A stretch of 20,163 bases of DNA from a virus (Duplodnaviria > Heunggongvirae > Uroviricota > Caudoviricetes), in IMG/VR virus record IMGVR_UViG_2718218396_000005, one strand, 5' to 3'. This document shows positions 8,056-14,886 of the stretch, piece after piece; within the stretch, counting starts at the first letter, position 1, and each line of letters starts with the position of its first letter. The notes below the pieces were generated by a model, which made no database searches, was not told where the DNA came from, and saw only the letters and a program-made list of their open reading frames with translations. The translations under genes were made by a program, and so were the position numbers.

Positions 8056-8090
8056 AGCCATCGATATTTCTGTCGATGGCTTTTTCTTTT
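8056..8090. terminator. Rho-independent terminator between the convergent acetyltransferase and tfa genes
   Basis: Perfect 8-bp stem GCCATCGA (8057-8064) / TCGATGGC (8073-8080) with an 8-nt loop, followed by TTTTTCTTTT (8081-8090). It starts 10 nt after the acetyltransferase stop and abuts the tfa stop codon. Confidence 0.65.
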
Positions 8091-8622
8091 TATTGTGGGG
8101 CGACTGGCCACTCAACATCCGCTGCTACTGTTGTATCAACACGATTCAACAATACCCGATATGTCTTCCATGCAGCCAGTAACGATGCCTCTTCCTCCGT
8201 CGCAATATCCAAATCTACGGCATCCTGAAGTGGCGCAATATGCTCACTGGCTACCTGCATCAGGCTGTTTTTTGTTTCTTCTGCCTCCCGTACCCGAAAC
8301 AGTTTTTCTGCTTCTGCATCTTTCGCCCAGGATGTGCCGTTCCACTTCTGACACTCTCCATCCGGCGACAACCAGGTAACATTTTCCGGTAACGGACCGA
8401 GTTCAGAAATAAATAACGCGTCGCCGGAAGCCACGTCATAAACCGTTTTACCCCGATGATCTTCAACGAGATGCCACGATGCCTCATTACTGTTGAAAAC
8501 AGCCACGAAGCCAGCCGGAATATCTGGCGGTGCAATATCGGTACTGTTTGCTGGCAGACCTGTATGAGGCGGAATGTATGCGTCACCTTCACCAATAAAT
8601 TCATTAGTTCCGGCCAGCAGAT
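8090..8622 (-). pseudogene. tfa: Tail fibre assembly protein (Tfa / P2 gpG family), 5' end removed by the IS629 copy at 8623
   Basis: Track ORF 8090..8506 ([57 protein letters not shown]...). The same frame stays open upstream to the IS boundary, reading [39 protein letters not shown] before the GTG. This matches my memory of E. coli Tfa proteins, which have about 15 more residues at the N-terminus. Confidence 0.7.
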
Positions 8623-9679
8623 TGAACCGCCCCGGGAATCCTGGAGACTAAACTCCCTGAGAAAGAGGTAAACAGGATGACTAAAAATACACGTTTTTCC
8701 CCCGAGGTCCGTCAACGGGCAGTCCGTATGGTTCTGGAAAGTCAGGGCGAATATGACTCACAATGGGCGGCAATTCGTTCCATTGCCCCAAAGATTGGCT
8801 GTACACCAGAGACTCTGCGTGTGTGGGTTCGTCAGCATGAGCGGGATACCGGGGGCGGTGATGGTGGACTCACCACCGCTGAACGTCAGCGTCTGAAAGA
8901 GCTGGAACGTGAAAATCGTGAACTGCGCCGCAGTAACGATATCCTTCGCCAGGCTTCCGCTTATTTTGCGAAGGCGGAGTTCGACCGCCTCTGGAAAAAA
9001 TAATGCCGCTGCTGGATAAGCTGCGTGAGCAGTACGGGGTCGGACCGGTATGCAGTGAACTGCATATTGCCCCGTCAACGTATTACCACTGTCAGCAACA
9101 GCGACATCATCCGGATAAACGCAGTGCCCGTGCGCAGCGCGATGACTGGCTGAAGAGAGAGATACAGCGCGTATACGATGAAAATCATCAGGTGTACGGT
9201 GTGCGTAAAGTCTGGCGCCAGTTGTTACGCGAAGGTATCAGGGTGGCCAGATGTACAGTGGCGCGCCTCATGGCGGTTATGGGACTTGCCGGTGTTCTCC
9301 GGGGTAAAAAGGTCCGTACTACCGTCAGCCGGAAAGCCGTTTCCGCAGGCGACCGCGTAAACCGTCAGTTCGTGGCAGAACGTCCTGACCAGCTGTGGGT
9401 GGCTGATTTTACTTACGTCAGCACATGGCAGGGCTTCGTCTATGTGGCGTTCATCATTGATGTGTTTTCCGGATGTATCGTGGGGTGGCGAGTCTCATCG
9501 TCTATGGAAACGACATTCGTGCTGGATGCACTGGAGCAGGCGTTGTGGGCCCGTCGGCCGTCCGGCACAGTCCATCACAGTGATAAAGGTTCTCAGTATG
9601 TATCACTGGCCTATACGGAGCGACTAAAAGAAGCAAAACTGCTGGCATCAACAGGGAGTACAGGTGACTCGTATGACAA
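8623..9679 (+). mobile_element. IS629-like element, second copy, truncated at the 3' end (first 1057 of 1310 bp); no right inverted repeat and no target duplication
   Basis: Colinear with copy 1 from the left end TGAACCGCCCCGG (8623) through position 9679, with one mismatch seen in the translation (copy 1 T353 vs copy 2 C8776; OrfA Cys vs Arg). From 9680 the sequence is unrelated and AT-rich. Confidence 0.8.
8677..9003 (+). CDS. IS629-like transposase OrfA (copy 2)
   Basis: 108-aa ORF identical to copy 1 OrfA except C->R at residue 34. Confidence 0.8.
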
Positions 9680-9692
9680 TGTATTTTATTAG
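9003..9692 (+). pseudogene. IS629-like transposase OrfB, truncated (about 225 of 295 codons); the ORF reads through the deletion junction
   Basis: Identical to copy 1 OrfB through ..STGDSYDN, then 3 junction-derived codons (VFY) and a stop. It lacks the C-terminal part including the E of the DDE region, so this copy cannot supply its own catalytic subunit. Confidence 0.8.
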
Positions 9693-9711
9693 TTCACATA
9701 CAATTATCAGA

Positions 9712-10026
9712 TTATTCTGGGAATAAGGTCTGAATATTCTTTTTTATTTTATAAAAATTGCATTCAACTCCGCTAGGCTGATTAGCCTGGTATGTTTCCT
9801 TGATGCTAACGGTATTGAAGGGGAGGTTGTCCTCTGGCCATTCGGCCATCCAGTAGGCAAATGCTGGGTTGCGCTTTATGAGTGCTAGCCCAGCCAGAAA
9901 GGCCGCGCGTTGCGCGCGGCTGCGTTCGGAGGCTGGCAGGCTATCGAGGTAATTGCACGCCTCCTGTTCACTCTTGACGGCGGCGGGCTTCAGATAGAAA
10001 CTTATCCGTCTGGTTGGTGTCGTCAT
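9712..10026 (-). CDS. parR: ParR-like ribbon-helix-helix centromere-binding protein (type II partition adaptor)
   Basis: 104-aa ORF just downstream of parM. N-terminal region ISFYLKPAAVKSEQEACNYLDSLPASERSRAQRAAFLAGLAL parallels R1 ParR as I recall it (IAFKLNPDV.....DTLDSIPQGERSRLNRAALTAGLAL). It ends soon after a ..LFPE motif, so it is shorter than R1 ParR. Confidence 0.7.
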   Translation of the reverse strand: MTTPTRRISFYLKPAAVKSEQEACNYLDSLPASERSRAQRAAFLAGLALIKRNPAFAYWMAEWPEDNLPFNTVSIKETYQANQPSGVECNFYKIKKNIQTLFPE

Positions 10027-10030
10027 TGGT

Positions 10031-10990
10031 TTACTCCTTGTTCATTGCGTACAACCCATTAACCAGAGCAAACTGTGGCACCCCGTCCGCGATGAAAGTC
10101 GCATTAACTCCGCAGGCTTCGCGGATAGCGGTTGCCACAATCTCCGCCCCGCCACCGACAACCATCACCCGCCCGTAACCCGAAAAAACCGCCAGCGCGC
10201 GGATCACGCGTTGTTTCAGTGTTTCTTCCTTTTCACGAATAACCGCCATCAGGCTGGCGTAATGCGCGTCATTGTGGATGTGCTGGCGCAGCCAGGCTTC
10301 ATCATGGCGATGTTCGATAATGGTATTGGCGATGTGGTGACTGGTGCGCATACCGTTAGTGGCCATCACCGACAGTACGGCATCGGCCATCAGAGAAACG
10401 CCTACGTGTGGATCGCAAAACACCTGGCTGATACCTGCCAGTTGCCCCTGAACCTTTGCCACATCCAGCGTGGTTCCGCCCAAATCCACAATCAGCAGGG
10501 ATTCAAACGGACTCATGTCAGCCAGTGCCTTAAAGCCAGCAGGAATGGATTCAGGCATAACCCGTACGTTACGGATAGTGAATGCTTCGCCGTTCTGGTA
10601 CTCCACCGGGCGCATGACGTTCGCTTTTTTGCGGTTGATGTTGGCCATGTCCGGCTGTGCGTTTGTATCGAAATACTCGCTCAGTGGCAGGGTGACAACC
10701 ACATCCACTTCCTGTGGTGTGATGCCTGATTTGACCAGCGCGTGATGAATGGCAATTACATTCACATCGCTGTACTGGTATTGCGTGTCGGTCGTCTGGA
10801 CAAAGCGATCGCTGACCGGATCAAAACCATAGCGCACGCCATCAAGCATGTAGTTCGCGGGCTGCGTGCCACCGAATGGCGCAGACCATTCCGACTTGAA
10901 GCTGTTCGGGCTGATGGCGTTGCGGCGTTCGCCGTTCTCAGTCCATGCCAGCTTGATGTTGGTGGAGCCGTCGTCGATACAAATTTTCAT
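10031..10990 (-). CDS. parM: ParM/StbA-like actin-fold ATPase (type II plasmid partition motor)
   Basis: 319-aa ORF. Blocks IDDGSTNIKL, ISPNSFK, YSDVNV..HHAL, MPESIPAG, DLGGTTLD, GVSL, GGGAE and LVNGLY line up along the whole length with R1 ParM as I recall it. Confidence 0.8.
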   Translation of the reverse strand: MKICIDDGSTNIKLAWTENGERRNAISPNSFKSEWSAPFGGTQPANYMLDGVRYGFDPVSDRFVQTTDTQYQYSDVNVIAIHHALVKSGITPQEVDVVVTLPLSEYFDTNAQPDMANINRKKANVMRPVEYQNGEAFTIRNVRVMPESIPAGFKALADMSPFESLLIVDLGGTTLDVAKVQGQLAGISQVFCDPHVGVSLMADAVLSVMATNGMRTSHHIANTIIEHRHDEAWLRQHIHNDAHYASLMAVIREKEETLKQRVIRALAVFSGYGRVMVVGGGAEIVATAIREACGVNATFIADGVPQFALVNGLYAMNKE

Positions 10991-11132
10991 GTCGCTTTTC
11001 CTTATGTTGATTAATTAATCGGTTACAGGATTTTTAAATCCCGCTTTTGCCTGTTTTGTGCGCGCTTCATATATCGCGGCGCGTTTTTTGCTCATTTACG
11101 GGATTTGTGAGTCCCGTTTCTGTCTGTTTTTT
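10991..11132 (-). promoter_or_regulatory. Candidate parC-like centromere/promoter region upstream of parM, with two imperfect direct repeats of about 34 bp
   Basis: ACAGGATTTTTAAATCCCGCTTTTGCCTGTTTTGTG (11027-11060) and ACGGGATTTGTGAGTCCCGTTTCTGTCTGTTTTTTG (11099-11132) are about 80% identical, and each holds a short internal inverted repeat. The second copy lies inside the 3' end of gene A. Confidence 0.3.
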
Positions 11133-13889
11133 GTTTCCACTGGTCAGGCCACCCCGCAGCAGGTCTGCTTTGCGGCTGGCGCGTTCAGTGGTTTCACTGA
11201 TTCTCTGTGCGTGCTCTGCGTCGCGGATGGCGCGCAGCATGTCAGAAAGCACGGTAACGGGTGTTTTCATGGTGTTCTGGTCCTGCTGAAGTGTGGATGC
11301 CAGGCGTGCGGCGGCTTCAGGGTCTGATGCCCCCAGCTGTGCCAGATAGCTGGCGACCGGGTTATGGCGGATCTCCGTGCTGCTTACGCCATGATTACGG
11401 CTCAGGCGCTGCCAGAGCTGCGTGATTCGGCTGTCCGGGCGGGTATCCGGTTTGCGTACAATTTCAAATCCCTGCGGTGCAATGATGCTGCCGTCAACGT
11501 ACAGACTGCCGCCCCGTAACAGGTGCTGCATCTGTTGTTCACCGATATGCAGGCCGAGAGATTCAGCAGACTCCCGCCATTCTTTAGCGAGTAATTCGTG
11601 GTTATCAGGCAAAGGCCGCTGCTGTTTGCGGCTCTGTGTCCAGCTCTGCATTTCATCACTGCTGTTTTTTGCCTGTTTGTCACGAAGCGAACGCATCAGC
11701 GCCCGGCGTTCGTGCCGTTTCAGTGAGCGCATCCATTCGTTCACGTCAACGCCGTCAGGAAGCTGCGGCCACGGTGCTGGCCGTTCTTCCGGCTGTTCTG
11801 TCCCGTTGTTGTCCGTTTCCTGTACACGGGGACAGTTATTGCCACGAGTCCAAGGGGCGGCAGGGCCGCCCTGAAGGTCAAAACCATTTTCGCGGGCGCT
11901 GTCTTCTACTCCCGGTTTACGTCTTACCAGCTTCCAGTTATCCGGGTGCGTGCACACACGGGAGGATTCCCCGATGAGTGGTGACCAGATCCCGTAAATC
12001 TGTACGCTCTGTTCGCCGTAATCGTTCAGCTCATCTGCGAGGTCGTAGGCGGTGCGAATCAGGTAGTCCTTGCGTGGAACAAGTACGCCTCCCTGTTTCT
12101 CAATGTAGGTGGTAAAACATCCGGCATCAGCGGCAGCAAGAACCGCATCCATTGCGTCATCCTTCAGCCGTTGCGGGCCTTCCGGGTTGCGTGCCATCTG
12201 GCTGGCAAGGCGACGCAGTTCACGCCACACCTGACGGGAGGGGATGCCAAAGAACTGGAACTGGCGGACCCGGTGAAGGCGCGCCCAGCCAATGGCGCGT
12301 TCCACGCTCTCGGTCATTGATTTTCCGGTTTCGTGGTCAACGCGTGGTTTGCCTGTTTTCGGGTCGATGCCATCCACGGCGCGGCTGTCCAGGTTTTTTC
12401 CGATGTAGGTGGCGATGTAGCTGGTTGGCGTGCCTTTTGAGCCGTCGACATACTCCGCCTTAAAGCGCGGAGTAATATCATCGCCCAGCTCGTGACGATC
12501 TTCCTGAATGGCAATATCGCGGGTGTGGGACACAATGGTGTCGATTTCTTCCGGATGAGCAAAGACCATCATATGCCAGTGCACGGTGCCGTCATGGTGA
12601 GGCTCCACCGTGCGGATGCCATACCAGCGCAGGCCGTCGCGGTTCAGTTTCTTGCGGACCGCCGCAAAAAACGTGTTAACCAGGTAATCGCTGGAGTCGC
12701 GCATGGTGGCCCCGTTCCATTTGGGATTCGGATGACCGTTCTCTGTTGTAGCGTGGTATTTTGACGGGCAGGTGACAGTCAGAAACACCGCTTTGTCGCC
12801 ACGGGCTTCGGCCAGAAGTTCCAGCCCCTTCATGGTGGCCATCATTTCTGCCTTACGGTGAACCGGGTTACTTACTCCCGCGTAATACACTGTCTCGAGA
12901 TCAATCGTGAACCCGTCTTCGTTTTCCAGCATGAAACTTTTCAGGAAATCGCGTGTTTTCTCGCGCTGTGCGCGAAACTCGCTTAACGCGTCCTGGCTCA
13001 GATAGGGCGATGTTTTTCTGGAAACCAGACAGGCGGCGCGGAGTTGTTCTTCTCTCCACTCGCAACGTAACAGCCACAGTTTGCGTTTCCACCATTCCGC
13101 ACAGGTCAGGCGAAGGATTGCGCCCGGCAGCAGCTCCGTGTCCGGTTCGTTCCTCCGGTCTTTGTCTGTTGTCAGTGCGTCATAATGTGGAGGCATGGCG
13201 TGCAGGTGTAACGCCATGCGGGCCAGCATCTGATACGCCTTCAGCGTTACATCCATGGTCAGTTCGCCATCGGTCGCGCCAAAGCCATCGCAGAGTTTTT
13301 CGAAGGTGCTGCTGAACATCGCCGCCGTCATGGTGGCCAGCGTCTGTATCTGGTGTTTGTTGAGCTGCGGCAGGTAAAGCAAATCGTCCAGGCGTTCGCG
13401 TCCGGCAAGGGAGCGATAACCCTGTGTCAGCCAGCGGTGATCGGTGCGCTCCAGACGTTCGAATATTTTGCGCAGGTTTCCGCGCGCGTAGCGTTCAGCC
13501 TGCCAGCTCTTTTTGCCTTTCTGACGATCGGCTTCCTGTTTTTTGCGCAGGAAGGAGAGGTGGCGAATAAGCGGATCGCGCAGATAGGACGGCAGCAGGC
13601 GCAGCGAGGCCATGGCTTCATCCACCGCACCGCGTGCCTGTTTTCTGGCGTCTCCTGCCAGTGTGATGGTTTTGTCCTGTTTTTCCTGTGCGTCCAGGCT
13701 TTTATTAATCAGGTTGCCCAGCGGCGTTGCGGAGAACGCCGCATCAGCCATTTCCTGGCGGCGCTCGTTCTCTACCCGGTAGGCATCCAGCCAGGAGGAA
13801 AGCGCGGATTCAGGAGCGGGGATCCCCGTTCCTTCACGCCCCACTGCGTGGCGCGGTTGTTGCCAGTCCCTGATGTACTCTGCCGTCAT
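11067..13889 (-). CDS. A: Replication initiation endonuclease (P2 gpA / phiX174 A superfamily rolling-circle initiator)
   Basis: 940-aa ORF with an HUH-type motif (GTVHWHMMVFAH) and a paired-tyrosine motif (SYIATYIGKN) resembling the phiX174 A active site YVAKYVNK. It sits at the end of the early operon as in P2. Confidence 0.8.
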   Translation of the reverse strand: MTAEYIRDWQQPRHAVGREGTGIPAPESALSSWLDAYRVENERRQEMADAAFSATPLGNLINKSLDAQEKQDKTITLAGDARKQARGAVDEAMASLRLLPSYLRDPLIRHLSFLRKKQEADRQKGKKSWQAERYARGNLRKIFERLERTDHRWLTQGYRSLAGRERLDDLLYLPQLNKHQIQTLATMTAAMFSSTFEKLCDGFGATDGELTMDVTLKAYQMLARMALHLHAMPPHYDALTTDKDRRNEPDTELLPGAILRLTCAEWWKRKLWLLRCEWREEQLRAACLVSRKTSPYLSQDALSEFRAQREKTRDFLKSFMLENEDGFTIDLETVYYAGVSNPVHRKAEMMATMKGLELLAEARGDKAVFLTVTCPSKYHATTENGHPNPKWNGATMRDSSDYLVNTFFAAVRKKLNRDGLRWYGIRTVEPHHDGTVHWHMMVFAHPEEIDTIVSHTRDIAIQEDRHELGDDITPRFKAEYVDGSKGTPTSYIATYIGKNLDSRAVDGIDPKTGKPRVDHETGKSMTESVERAIGWARLHRVRQFQFFGIPSRQVWRELRRLASQMARNPEGPQRLKDDAMDAVLAAADAGCFTTYIEKQGGVLVPRKDYLIRTAYDLADELNDYGEQSVQIYGIWSPLIGESSRVCTHPDNWKLVRRKPGVEDSARENGFDLQGGPAAPWTRGNNCPRVQETDNNGTEQPEERPAPWPQLPDGVDVNEWMRSLKRHERRALMRSLRDKQAKNSSDEMQSWTQSRKQQRPLPDNHELLAKEWRESAESLGLHIGEQQMQHLLRGGSLYVDGSIIAPQGFEIVRKPDTRPDSRITQLWQRLSRNHGVSSTEIRHNPVASYLAQLGASDPEAAARLASTLQQDQNTMKTPVTVLSDMLRAIRDAEHAQRISETTERASRKADLLRGGLTSGNKKQTETGLTNPVNEQKTRRDI

Positions 13890-13895
13890 AGTGAT

Positions 13896-14261
13896 TTACT
13901 TCGTCATGCCATTCAGGGTGTCGCGGCAGGCTGTAGCCAGCCGCTGAATTTCCAGCACGGTGTCTTCTGTGTCGGCATGGCGATGTGTGATGCGGATGCT
14001 GTCGGCAATCACATCGACGATTGCAGAGGATGGGCGCTGGTAAATGCCAATAACGGACGGGGTGCCACCTTCAATGCGGTAAAGCCTGTAATTTCCCTCG
14101 TGGCTGTCAATCATGTAGCGACCATCAATAACAATCTTTCCGTCAGCGAGCTGCGGTACAGGCAGGGATTTCAGGTACATGTCATAACGATCACGCACGC
14201 GAGCGGCAAGATCACGTTCTGTGTTGAGCAGGTATTCAAGAAAGTCGTTGGCGAGAATCAT
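13896..14261 (-). CDS. Hypothetical early-operon protein (121 aa) immediately upstream of A
   Basis: ORF in the track whose stop is 6 nt before the A start. No family recognised. Confidence 0.55.
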   Translation of the reverse strand: MILANDFLEYLLNTERDLAARVRDRYDMYLKSLPVPQLADGKIVIDGRYMIDSHEGNYRLYRIEGGTPSVIGIYQRPSSAIVDVIADSIRITHRHADTEDTVLEIQRLATACRDTLNGMTK

Positions 14262-14333
14262 TGCGGCAATCCTCTTGTTACAGATGTGCGAAGGCCTCCC
14301 GCCGCAAGGTGCAGGAAAGGCCCGGAACAGGAA

Positions 14334-14564
14334 TTAATGGAGTTTGTTTTGCTGCTGGATGAGCTGTTGAAACTCGTGCAGATCATCCGCCAGATAGCTG
14401 AAAACAGAGGCGGAATAAATGTTTGATAGTGCGTGGCTGCGCTCATGCAGCATATTGATGTGCATGATTTGCGCGACGCGTGATGCGCGGGAAAGTCTGC
14501 GGTTGATTTCAGTCTGGATGTGACGACGCTCCGCGATAGCGCGGTGCTGTTTGCGGTCTGCCAT
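14334..14564 (-). CDS. Hypothetical small basic protein (76 aa)
   Basis: ORF in the track with an AAGAGG-type RBS (reverse complement of about 14572-14577) 7 nt upstream of the ATG. Basic and helical in character. Confidence 0.5.
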   Translation of the reverse strand: MADRKQHRAIAERRHIQTEINRRLSRASRVAQIMHINMLHERSHALSNIYSASVFSYLADDLHEFQQLIQQQNKLH

Positions 14565-14744
14565 GGTGTGGCCTCTTTGCTCGGTGATAGAAATAACTCA
14601 CCATCCAGAGTTGAGAATCTCGGGGTGGCGAGACGTACAGGGTTCTCAACACCGGAGAGCAAAGAATCCGGCCCGACCGAAGTCGGCCCCGTACGCCCCG
14701 CCATAATTCTGACGCGAAAAAGACGTGGCAATACAGTACGCACA

Positions 14745-14765
14745 AAAAAACCGCTAGCGCGGTTA
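14745..14765 (-). terminator. Rho-independent terminator inside the early operon (minus strand)
   Basis: On the minus strand, stem AACCGC / GCGGTT with loop GCTA followed by a run of T (plus strand A run at 14745-14751). It lies about 120 nt downstream of the 99-aa gene stop. Confidence 0.45.
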
Positions 14766-14886
14766 TGCGCTTTGCTCTGTATCGGGTTGAGAATCCCGGC
14801 ACCCGTTTTATGAGGTGCAGCGGAAATGTAACCTGACCGATTGCGGCATGGCAAGCGGTTTTTTTGTGTGTGCATGTTCTGGTTTC

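Follow-up and report, generated by a model that had tools for sequence, protein, structure and literature searches.

In the ParMRC system of plasmid R1 and its IncF relatives, a cis-acting site is followed by parM and then by parR. Segregation modules with a cis-acting centromere also occur in temperate phages: P1 ParABS and N15 SopAB are type I systems built on a Walker ATPase, and the prophages that carry them are plasmids. Here we analyzed a ParMRC-like cassette in a 20,163-nucleotide stretch of viral DNA (IMG/VR record IMGVR_UViG_2718218396_000005; the window), which is a defective P2-family prophage of Escherichia coli O157:H7. The cassette comprises parM (10031..10990) and parR (9712..10026), both on the minus strand, and two candidate centromere repeats. 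It resembles R1 ParMRC in the order of site, parM and parR, in the Pfam family of ParR with its N-terminal DNA-binding strand and C-terminal (K/R)xNAxxL(F/I) motif, and in repeats that lie immediately upstream of parM as two blocks flanking a core. In contrast to the R1 system it resides on an integrating P2-like phage and not on a plasmid. Unlike the P1 and N15 modules it is of type II, belongs to an integrating phage and is found almost only in chromosomes.

A functional parallel is provided by AlpA/AlpC of the Corynebacterium glutamicum prophage CGP3, a pair of early genes on which efficient replication of the phage DNA depends (PMC4446434). Both systems are encoded by an integrated prophage and combine an actin-like ATPase with an adaptor that binds DNA, both place the adaptor site upstream of the operon, and for both an action on circular phage DNA in the extrachromosomal phase is proposed. 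However, AlpC/AlpA belong to a separate actin-like family, whereas the window proteins are of the R1 ParM/ParR type, so that the resemblance is functional and not familial. Gene order and host phylum differ as well, and a role in replication was shown for AlpAC while we infer it for the window cassette.

The occurrence of such cassettes in P2-like phages is not new. Rousset et al. (2022; PMC9122126) reported a putative plasmid partitioning system between genes A and Q in about a quarter of the P2-like phages of E. coli; the system was listed and plasmid maintenance was suggested in one sentence. Their arrangements with StbA and Plasmid_stab_B represent the system described here, and the proportion of about a quarter is consistent with the 1304 of 5426 complete E. 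coli genomes in which we found parMR. In phage phiSM, parMR has been listed as a 'fitness' gene (PMC6456863). What our analysis adds to the published locus is the fixed site next to A with cargo downstream, a phage-specific ParM clade, the domain logic of ParR and a candidate parC.

The initial annotation of the window, made from the sequence alone, had described a full-length ParM-like ATPase and a ParR-like protein, and this was borne out by Pfam, PDB and alignment evidence; the profile search it had proposed matched StbA_N, the ParM C-terminal domain and Plasmid_stab_B. The 319-residue product of parM matched StbA_N (1.8e-82) and the ParM C-terminal domain (3.5e-69), both over their full length, as well as the R1 ParM crystal-structure sequences (PDB 1MWK; 7.3e-93), and it is 47% identical to IncF ParM over 318 residues. 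Alignment with R1 ParM revealed that the phosphate-binding and catalytic motifs DDGST, PES (E147), DLGGTT (D169) and GGGA are all kept. The nucleotide-binding residues D6, D7, E147, D169, G171, G172, T173, T174 and G279-A282 do not vary in an alignment of eleven phage-borne relatives. By its sequence the protein is predicted to be an actin-fold ATPase of the R1 ParM/StbA type with intact motifs for nucleotide binding and hydrolysis, as expected for type II partition. In a codon comparison of four phage copies, synonymous divergence (dS) was 0.05-0.09 and non-synonymous divergence (dN) 0.000-0.005, which corresponds to a dN/dS of about 0.05. The constraint on parM equals or exceeds that on gene A, and the gene is under strong purifying selection. 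A scan against NCBIfam gave sub-threshold matches only (for example ParM equivalog PRK13917, 19.6 bits against a cutoff of 417) and was uninformative; PRK13917 models a different ParM type.

The second gene, parR, encodes a predicted centromere-binding adaptor of 104 residues that matches the ParR/StbB family Plasmid_stab_B (7.7e-29) and PHROG 2515, the latter across positions 1-103 of 103. The protein is built from an N-terminal domain of the ribbon-helix-helix type (residues 1-66), a linker (67-93) and the C-terminal motif NIxxLFPE (94-104). Per-column entropy of 64 full-length Escherichia homologues displayed good conservation of residues 1-66 and hypervariability of residues 67-93. The strand RRISFYLKP is essentially invariant in this set, and N97, I98, F102 and P103 are almost invariant. 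An AlphaFold2 model contains helices at 20-29, 32-52, 54-61 and 87-101 and a disordered segment at 62-86. The C-terminal helix is confident (predicted local distance difference test about 77), and the monomer shows the helices without the strand, as would be expected when the dimer is not modelled. The top Foldseek match of this model in the PDB was ParR of plasmid pB171 (2JD3; probability 0.80, template modelling score 0.41-0.46), which was also the only relevant PDB match by sequence (0.012). ParR is thus an adaptor with an N-terminal ribbon-helix-helix DNA-binding domain, the second component of a type II system.

The initial annotation had also noted that ParR is shorter than its R1 counterpart after the LFPE motif. 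The difference in length was confirmed (104 versus 116 residues), but no tail is missing: the absent residues fall in the linker and the C-terminal motif is kept. The terminal LFPE had been equated with the internal LFPKE of R1 ParR, whereas our alignments place it at the R1 C-terminus, where KKNIQTLFPE of the window protein aligns with KKNAMKLIN. The latter is the C-terminal ParM-binding peptide of R1 ParR. The alignments covered ParRs from six P2-like prophages, one integrative and conjugative element (ICE), one integrated IncF-like plasmid and one IncF plasmid, and a motif (K/R)xN(A/I)xxL(F/I)(P) was present at or near the C-terminus of every one of them. The terminal motif of the window ParR therefore aligns with the ParM-binding motif at the C-terminus of plasmid ParRs. 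A C-terminal truncation was ruled out by this multi-genus alignment together with the PHROG length, and ParR of phage vB_EcoM-569R5, which is free of insertion sequences (IS), is identical in length to the window protein.

In contrast to the uniform ParM, ParR is highly polymorphic. About 60 ParR clusters were obtained at 90% identity as compared to 4 clusters of full-length ParM, and 46 distinct ParR sequences were counted among 77 IMG/VR loci. Even within the well-conserved N-terminal domain, dS between parR alleles is about 1, and dN/dS in the linker is likewise about 1. Positive or diversifying selection was therefore rejected, as the alleles are ancient and the linker evolves neutrally; for the same reasons the polymorphism is most readily explained by recombination among old alleles, with a junction close to codon 18 (~9972 in the window). 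Megablast alignments broke at several positions inside parR. An invariant DNA-binding strand, a freely drifting linker and a conserved C-terminal motif are the pattern that a working adaptor would be expected to show.

The repeat-bearing region that had been noticed upstream of parM was resolved into two direct repeats of 38 nt, which are 79% identical, are spaced by 73 bp and lie on the minus strand. The proximal copy (11023..11060) is located between A and parM and contains ACAGGCAAAAGCGGGATT and the palindrome GGGATTT/AAATCC. The distal copy (11096..11133), with the palindrome GGGAC/GTCCC, lies within the last codons of gene A (11067..13889, minus strand), which codes for a replication protein of 940 residues (Pfam Phage_GPA, 2.4e-131). 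Each repeat is thus composed of an A-rich stretch and a short palindrome. A 26-mer pair as good as the best one observed was obtained in 2 of 300 dinucleotide shuffles, and the core motif ACAGRCARAARCGGGAYT is confined to these two sites, in the window as well as in a complete relative of 34 kb. The best direct repeat in the 200 bp upstream of parM was compared between genera, with positions counted from the start codon. Distal and proximal repeats are located at -143 and -70 in the E. coli window (spacing 73 bp), at -128 and -55 in the Hafnia prophage (73 bp), at -133 and -61 in the Plesiomonas prophage (72 bp), at -153 and -60 in the Serratia prophage (93 bp) and at -150 and -57 in the Enterobacter prophage (93 bp). 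Spacing is therefore constant within each subclade. This two-block layout upstream of parM, as in R1 parC, supports the region as a candidate ParR-binding site, that is, a parC-like centromere or operator. In the Serratia/Enterobacter subclade a long inverted repeat with arms of 14-20 nt, 26-28 nt apart, lies beside the direct repeats spaced by 93 bp (L009 7887-7940 and L010 7883-7950). The centromere-like site has been remodelled between the subclades, while a GGCAAAAxCGGGA-like element is retained.

Gene A ends 76 bp upstream of parM on the same strand, and no minus-strand terminator was predicted between the two genes, so that parMR transcripts would most simply arise by read-through from the early operon. 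A ribosome binding site (AAGGA) and a conserved ATTAATCAA block were read from the sequence just upstream of parM (10999..11019, minus strand); the block is kept in Hafnia and Plesiomonas and is possibly a -10 region. The repeats were also considered as intrinsic terminators, since they look terminator-like on the plus strand of the window, but this was dropped because the order of hairpin and T-run is not kept in Hafnia and Plesiomonas.

In intact relatives the genes are arranged as int, C, cox, ..., A, parM, parR, variable genes, Q (portal) and P (terminase). This order from int to P was seen in phage P88 (Xuanwuvirus), phage 569R5 and the 34-kb circular record, and it also held in all 14 matching phage records, each of which has parMR. 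An IMG/VR scan with the clade alignment returned only near-identical E. coli loci, which serve synteny counts and not estimates of diversity. Gene A lies directly upstream of parM in all 78 of these loci with enough upstream sequence, parR is present in 77 of 80, and parR and Q are 1.0-4.2 kb apart. As the order A-parM-parR is fixed while the distance to Q varies, the truly variable slot starts after, and partly within, parR. Of the 1437 E. coli genomes that matched a gene A of this type, approximately 1264 carry parMR. Hence parMR is near-constant in the P88-like (Xuanwuvirus) lineage, although not strictly core, and the view that such a module is not a standard part of a P2-like genome was not upheld by the phage records, the IMG/VR loci and the genome counts. 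The comparison of loci that had been suggested showed parMR to recur at the site downstream of A, between A and the variable cargo. The initial annotation had counted a conserved gene pair of this lineage with a known function as evidence against its reading: the conservation was found, an experimentally known function was not.

The location agrees with the earlier placement of the cassette in the cargo hotspot of P2, the A-to-Q interval of the literature (PMC9122126). Consistent with the gpA-gpQ hotspot, parMR lies between A and Q and its presence varies among related prophages, although it varies far less than the cargo that follows it. A sister prophage (E. coli 98202; L005 4644-7422) has a 96% identical gene A and no parMR; genes for an AAA ATPase and an S8 peptidase directly follow A in its place. 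This pair is also found alongside StbA/StbB in arrangements described by Rousset et al. (PMC9122126). Homology with the sister prophage is lost at ~11178 of the window, which is about 45 bp upstream of the distal repeat, and the module that is gained or lost as an indel unit therefore comprises the last ~37 codons of A (11067-11178), both repeats, parM and parR. The C-terminal ~20-37 codons of the sister gene A differ.

Beyond an Escherichia cluster of 92-98% identity, the closest relatives of the window ParM were found in Hafnia and Plesiomonas (62%), Serratia (58%) and Enterobacter (54%). In a neighbour-joining tree these proteins form a clade with the window ParM, apart from plasmid-type sequences. 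Each of the four parM genes examined from these genera occupies the interval between A and the portal gene of a P2-like prophage and is followed by a parR of 116-134 codons and then by unrelated cargo, for example HicAB or a KAP NTPase. The three outgroup ParMs are encoded by an ICE, an integrated IncF-like plasmid and a plasmid-like contig. The synteny A-parM-parR-cargo-Q extends over Escherichia, Citrobacter, Hafnia, Plesiomonas, Serratia and Enterobacter and persists at ParM identities as low as 54%. Because a separate ParM clade shares the position between A and the portal gene across genera, these sequences point to a phage-adapted ParM clade and to an association of ParMR with P2-like phages that is old and maintained and not the product of recent capture.

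With moderate confidence we propose that the cassette is a functional type II ParMRC-like DNA-moving module of P88-like P2-family phages, which would act on the free circular phage genome. ParR dimers would bind the two 38-bp repeats straddling the stop codon of gene A by means of the N-terminal strand RRISFYLKP. The C-terminal helix with NIxxLFPE would, by homology to R1 ParR, capture the ends of ParM filaments. ATP-driven polymerisation of ParM, which its 47% identity to R1 ParM and its intact catalytic residues suggest, would then push paired circles apart. Most likely parMR is expressed with the early replication operon, as only 76 bp separate it from A, which lies on the same strand, and neither a terminator nor a strong promoter was predicted in this interval. 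Expression would thus occur after infection and before integration, and again after excision or induction. The replicating circles would be spread or positioned in a manner comparable to AlpA/AlpC of CGP3, rather than kept as a plasmid over the long term.

Several observations weigh against this proposal. The sister prophage with its 96% identical gene A does without parMR, so that the module is dispensable for this type of phage, and up to 3 parMR copies per genome occur without obvious incompatibility. The candidate parC consists of two 38-bp repeats with GGGA...TCCC palindromes, one of them inside the coding end of gene A, whereas R1 parC has ten 11-bp iterons. Among P88-like phages the nucleotide diversity of the repeats (0.036 and 0.073) is on a level with that of synonymous sites (0.051), and constraint on the candidate centromere is therefore not demonstrated. 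A consensus scan found no sigma-70 promoter upstream of parM, so that the timing of expression is deduced from gene order only, and in contrast to R1 ParMRC no separate strong promoter was detected for the cassette. Finally, the literature that we found on ParMR in P2-like phages consists of annotation-level mentions, with no functional study among them.

A more far-reaching version, that P88-type phages have domesticated a ParMRC lineage of their own for partitioning or positioning their free circular genomes, is a tentative proposal that falls somewhat short of an even chance. If it were true, ParMR might deliver copies to both daughter cells before integration, organise rolling-circle replication and packaging from monomeric circles, or allow a facultative low-copy carrier state, and an actin-like cytoskeleton would be routine in the life cycle of a very common group of integrating coliphages. 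About one in four complete E. coli genomes contains a plasmid segregation motor inside an integrating P2-like prophage. With a cassette of 1.5 kb, the culturable phages P88 and phiSM and the known biochemistry of R1, a cheap and well-defined test system is at hand, which could be used to ask if temperate phages control how their DNA is inherited or positioned during short extrachromosomal phases. For annotation, this means that a chromosomal E. coli gene labelled 'plasmid segregation protein ParM' is usually the sign of a P88-like prophage and not of an integrated plasmid.

The window itself bears on an alternative in which parMR would be directed at the host or have no current function, being a selfish or neutral passenger beside gene A and a relic in the O157:H7 cryptic prophage. 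On the minus strand, read from right to left, the window carries integrase, repressor, cox-like early genes, replication gene A, parM and parR. To the left of parMR follow a truncated IS629 and then the plus-strand tail genes FI, FII, E, T and U. This IS629 (copy B; 8623..9679, plus strand) retains 1057 of 1310 bp and lacks its right end, as determined by self-blast against the complete copy, and carries rve/HTH_21 domains. As the initial annotation had stated, it abuts the 3' end of parR: the junction lies at 9679/9680, 32 bp from the parR stop codon, and those 32 bp (9680..9711, minus strand) are the last phage DNA, at which the blastn match to phage 569R5 begins exactly (9680). Copy B joins a tail-fibre-assembly gene to this segment, and compared with the complete phage genome L012 about 15 kb from tail fibre H through portal Q are missing, including tail fibre, baseplate, lysis, head, terminase and portal genes and the cargo slot. 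Without these structural, lysis and packaging genes no phage cycle can make use of parMR in the window, where the cassette is an intact passenger in a dead prophage. Capture of parMR through IS629 activity, which had been considered earlier, was rejected: the IS-free phages P88 and vB_EcoM-569R5 show the same order of A, parM and parR, and copy B is truncated at the junction. It marks a later deletion that destroyed the phage and did not import parMR.

For the lineage as a whole, a passenger or host-directed role appears unlikely. It would fit the absence of parMR from the sister lineage and the unremarkable conservation of the repeats, in addition to the deletion in the window. In contrast, the low dN/dS of parM across phages, the synteny over six genera and the retention of the ParR terminal motif next to a freely drifting linker argue for selection for function in the phage lineage.

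We also considered a plasmid-prophage lifestyle, in which parMR would let P88-like phages be inherited as low-copy plasmids over many generations, for instance in hosts whose attachment site is missing or already taken. This lifestyle corresponds to the suggestion made by Rousset et al. (PMC9122126). The only phage-sized match in the plasmid database PLSDB, pZ1323PEC0009-2 (NZ_CP148288.1; L012), is a complete P88-like genome of 34,461 bp that is circular and closed at the phage attachment site attP. The record may represent either an episome or the assembly of an induced phage; spontaneous induction could equally account for a circular contig. Several structural genes are missing from its gene table, probably owing to frameshifts. 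The other PLSDB matches are records of 0.2-1.4 Mb; the one examined, NZ_CP114132.1 (438 kb), is a mis-assigned piece of chromosome carrying yecA, tyrP and ftnA. A query with the attP junction found no intact attP inside any complete E. coli genome record. The phage-sized Plesiomonas contig WEKF01000002.1 (L015; 32,167 bp), which may likewise be read in favour of a plasmid state, ends 141 bp past the integrase gene, at or near the attachment site; the contig is either a phage circle that was assembled on its own or the result of a break in the assembly at the attachment site. Near ogr/attP of the lineage (L012 110-1883, L014 2629-4403) we observed genes for a DNA methyltransferase, a Com-like regulator and a Hok/Gef-family toxin; with this Hok/Gef-type gene and parMRC the P88-like lineage holds homologues of both classical R1 stability loci.

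Against a plasmid lifestyle, 1442 of the 1444 parMR places in complete E. coli genomes are chromosomal and not on an autonomous replicon, and integrase and repressor are retained in all members examined. In P2, gene A is part of a repressor-controlled early operon, so that replication would be switched off in the repressed state. The almost exclusively chromosomal occurrence argues for a transient rather than a permanent episomal role. The earlier idea of a once-episomal element is weakened by the chromosomal location of nearly all copies and by the finding of a single phage-sized circular 'plasmid' record. We regard long-term persistence as a plasmid as improbable, and stable plasmid maintenance is unlikely to be the main role of the cassette.

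Least of all do the data favour a co-opted exclusion or defence function, in which ParR, parC and ParM would interfere with incoming phages or ParMRC plasmids (incompatibility) to the benefit of the lysogen: the site adjoins a documented anti-phage hotspot (PMC9122126) and the central region of ParR is highly polymorphic, yet PADLOC-DB profiles gave no match for ParM, ParR or A at E <= 0.1, linker divergence is neutral-like without excess non-synonymous change, the conserved parts are the DNA-binding strand and the putative ParM-binding motif as in ordinary partition, and the candidate parC is unlike the R1 parC iterons, so that this role, raised in the initial annotation, is very improbable.

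The history of the prophage can be followed further from the second IS629 of the window. Copy A (200-1509) is complete (1310 bp), has the same orientation as copy B and is flanked by a 3-bp target duplication; relative to the complete phage genome it is a simple insertion. It is absent from an otherwise 99.96%-identical relative, and the strain without copy A shows the same copy B junction. Both copies carry the ALIL frameshift pseudoknot. The 1.45-kb parMR region is 100% identical in many O157:H7 chromosomes, and in another strain the same element adjoins yecA/tyrP.

Rfam searches identified further RNA elements in the window. In the early region, matches above the gathering score were obtained on the minus strand for the C4 antisense RNA (14621-14708; 78.5 bits) and the Hfq-binding RNA isrK (14744-14818; 63 bits). 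Both lie within a predicted open reading frame of 205 codons (14258-14875) with only a weak match to the Ash family. This region looks like a P1/P7-type c4/ant-like immunity RNA module inside a P2-like early operon, and the reading frame call may be spurious. A match to the Rfam IS009 RNA family (191 bits; 8127-8325, minus strand) is located inside the tail-fibre-assembly gene (8090-8506).

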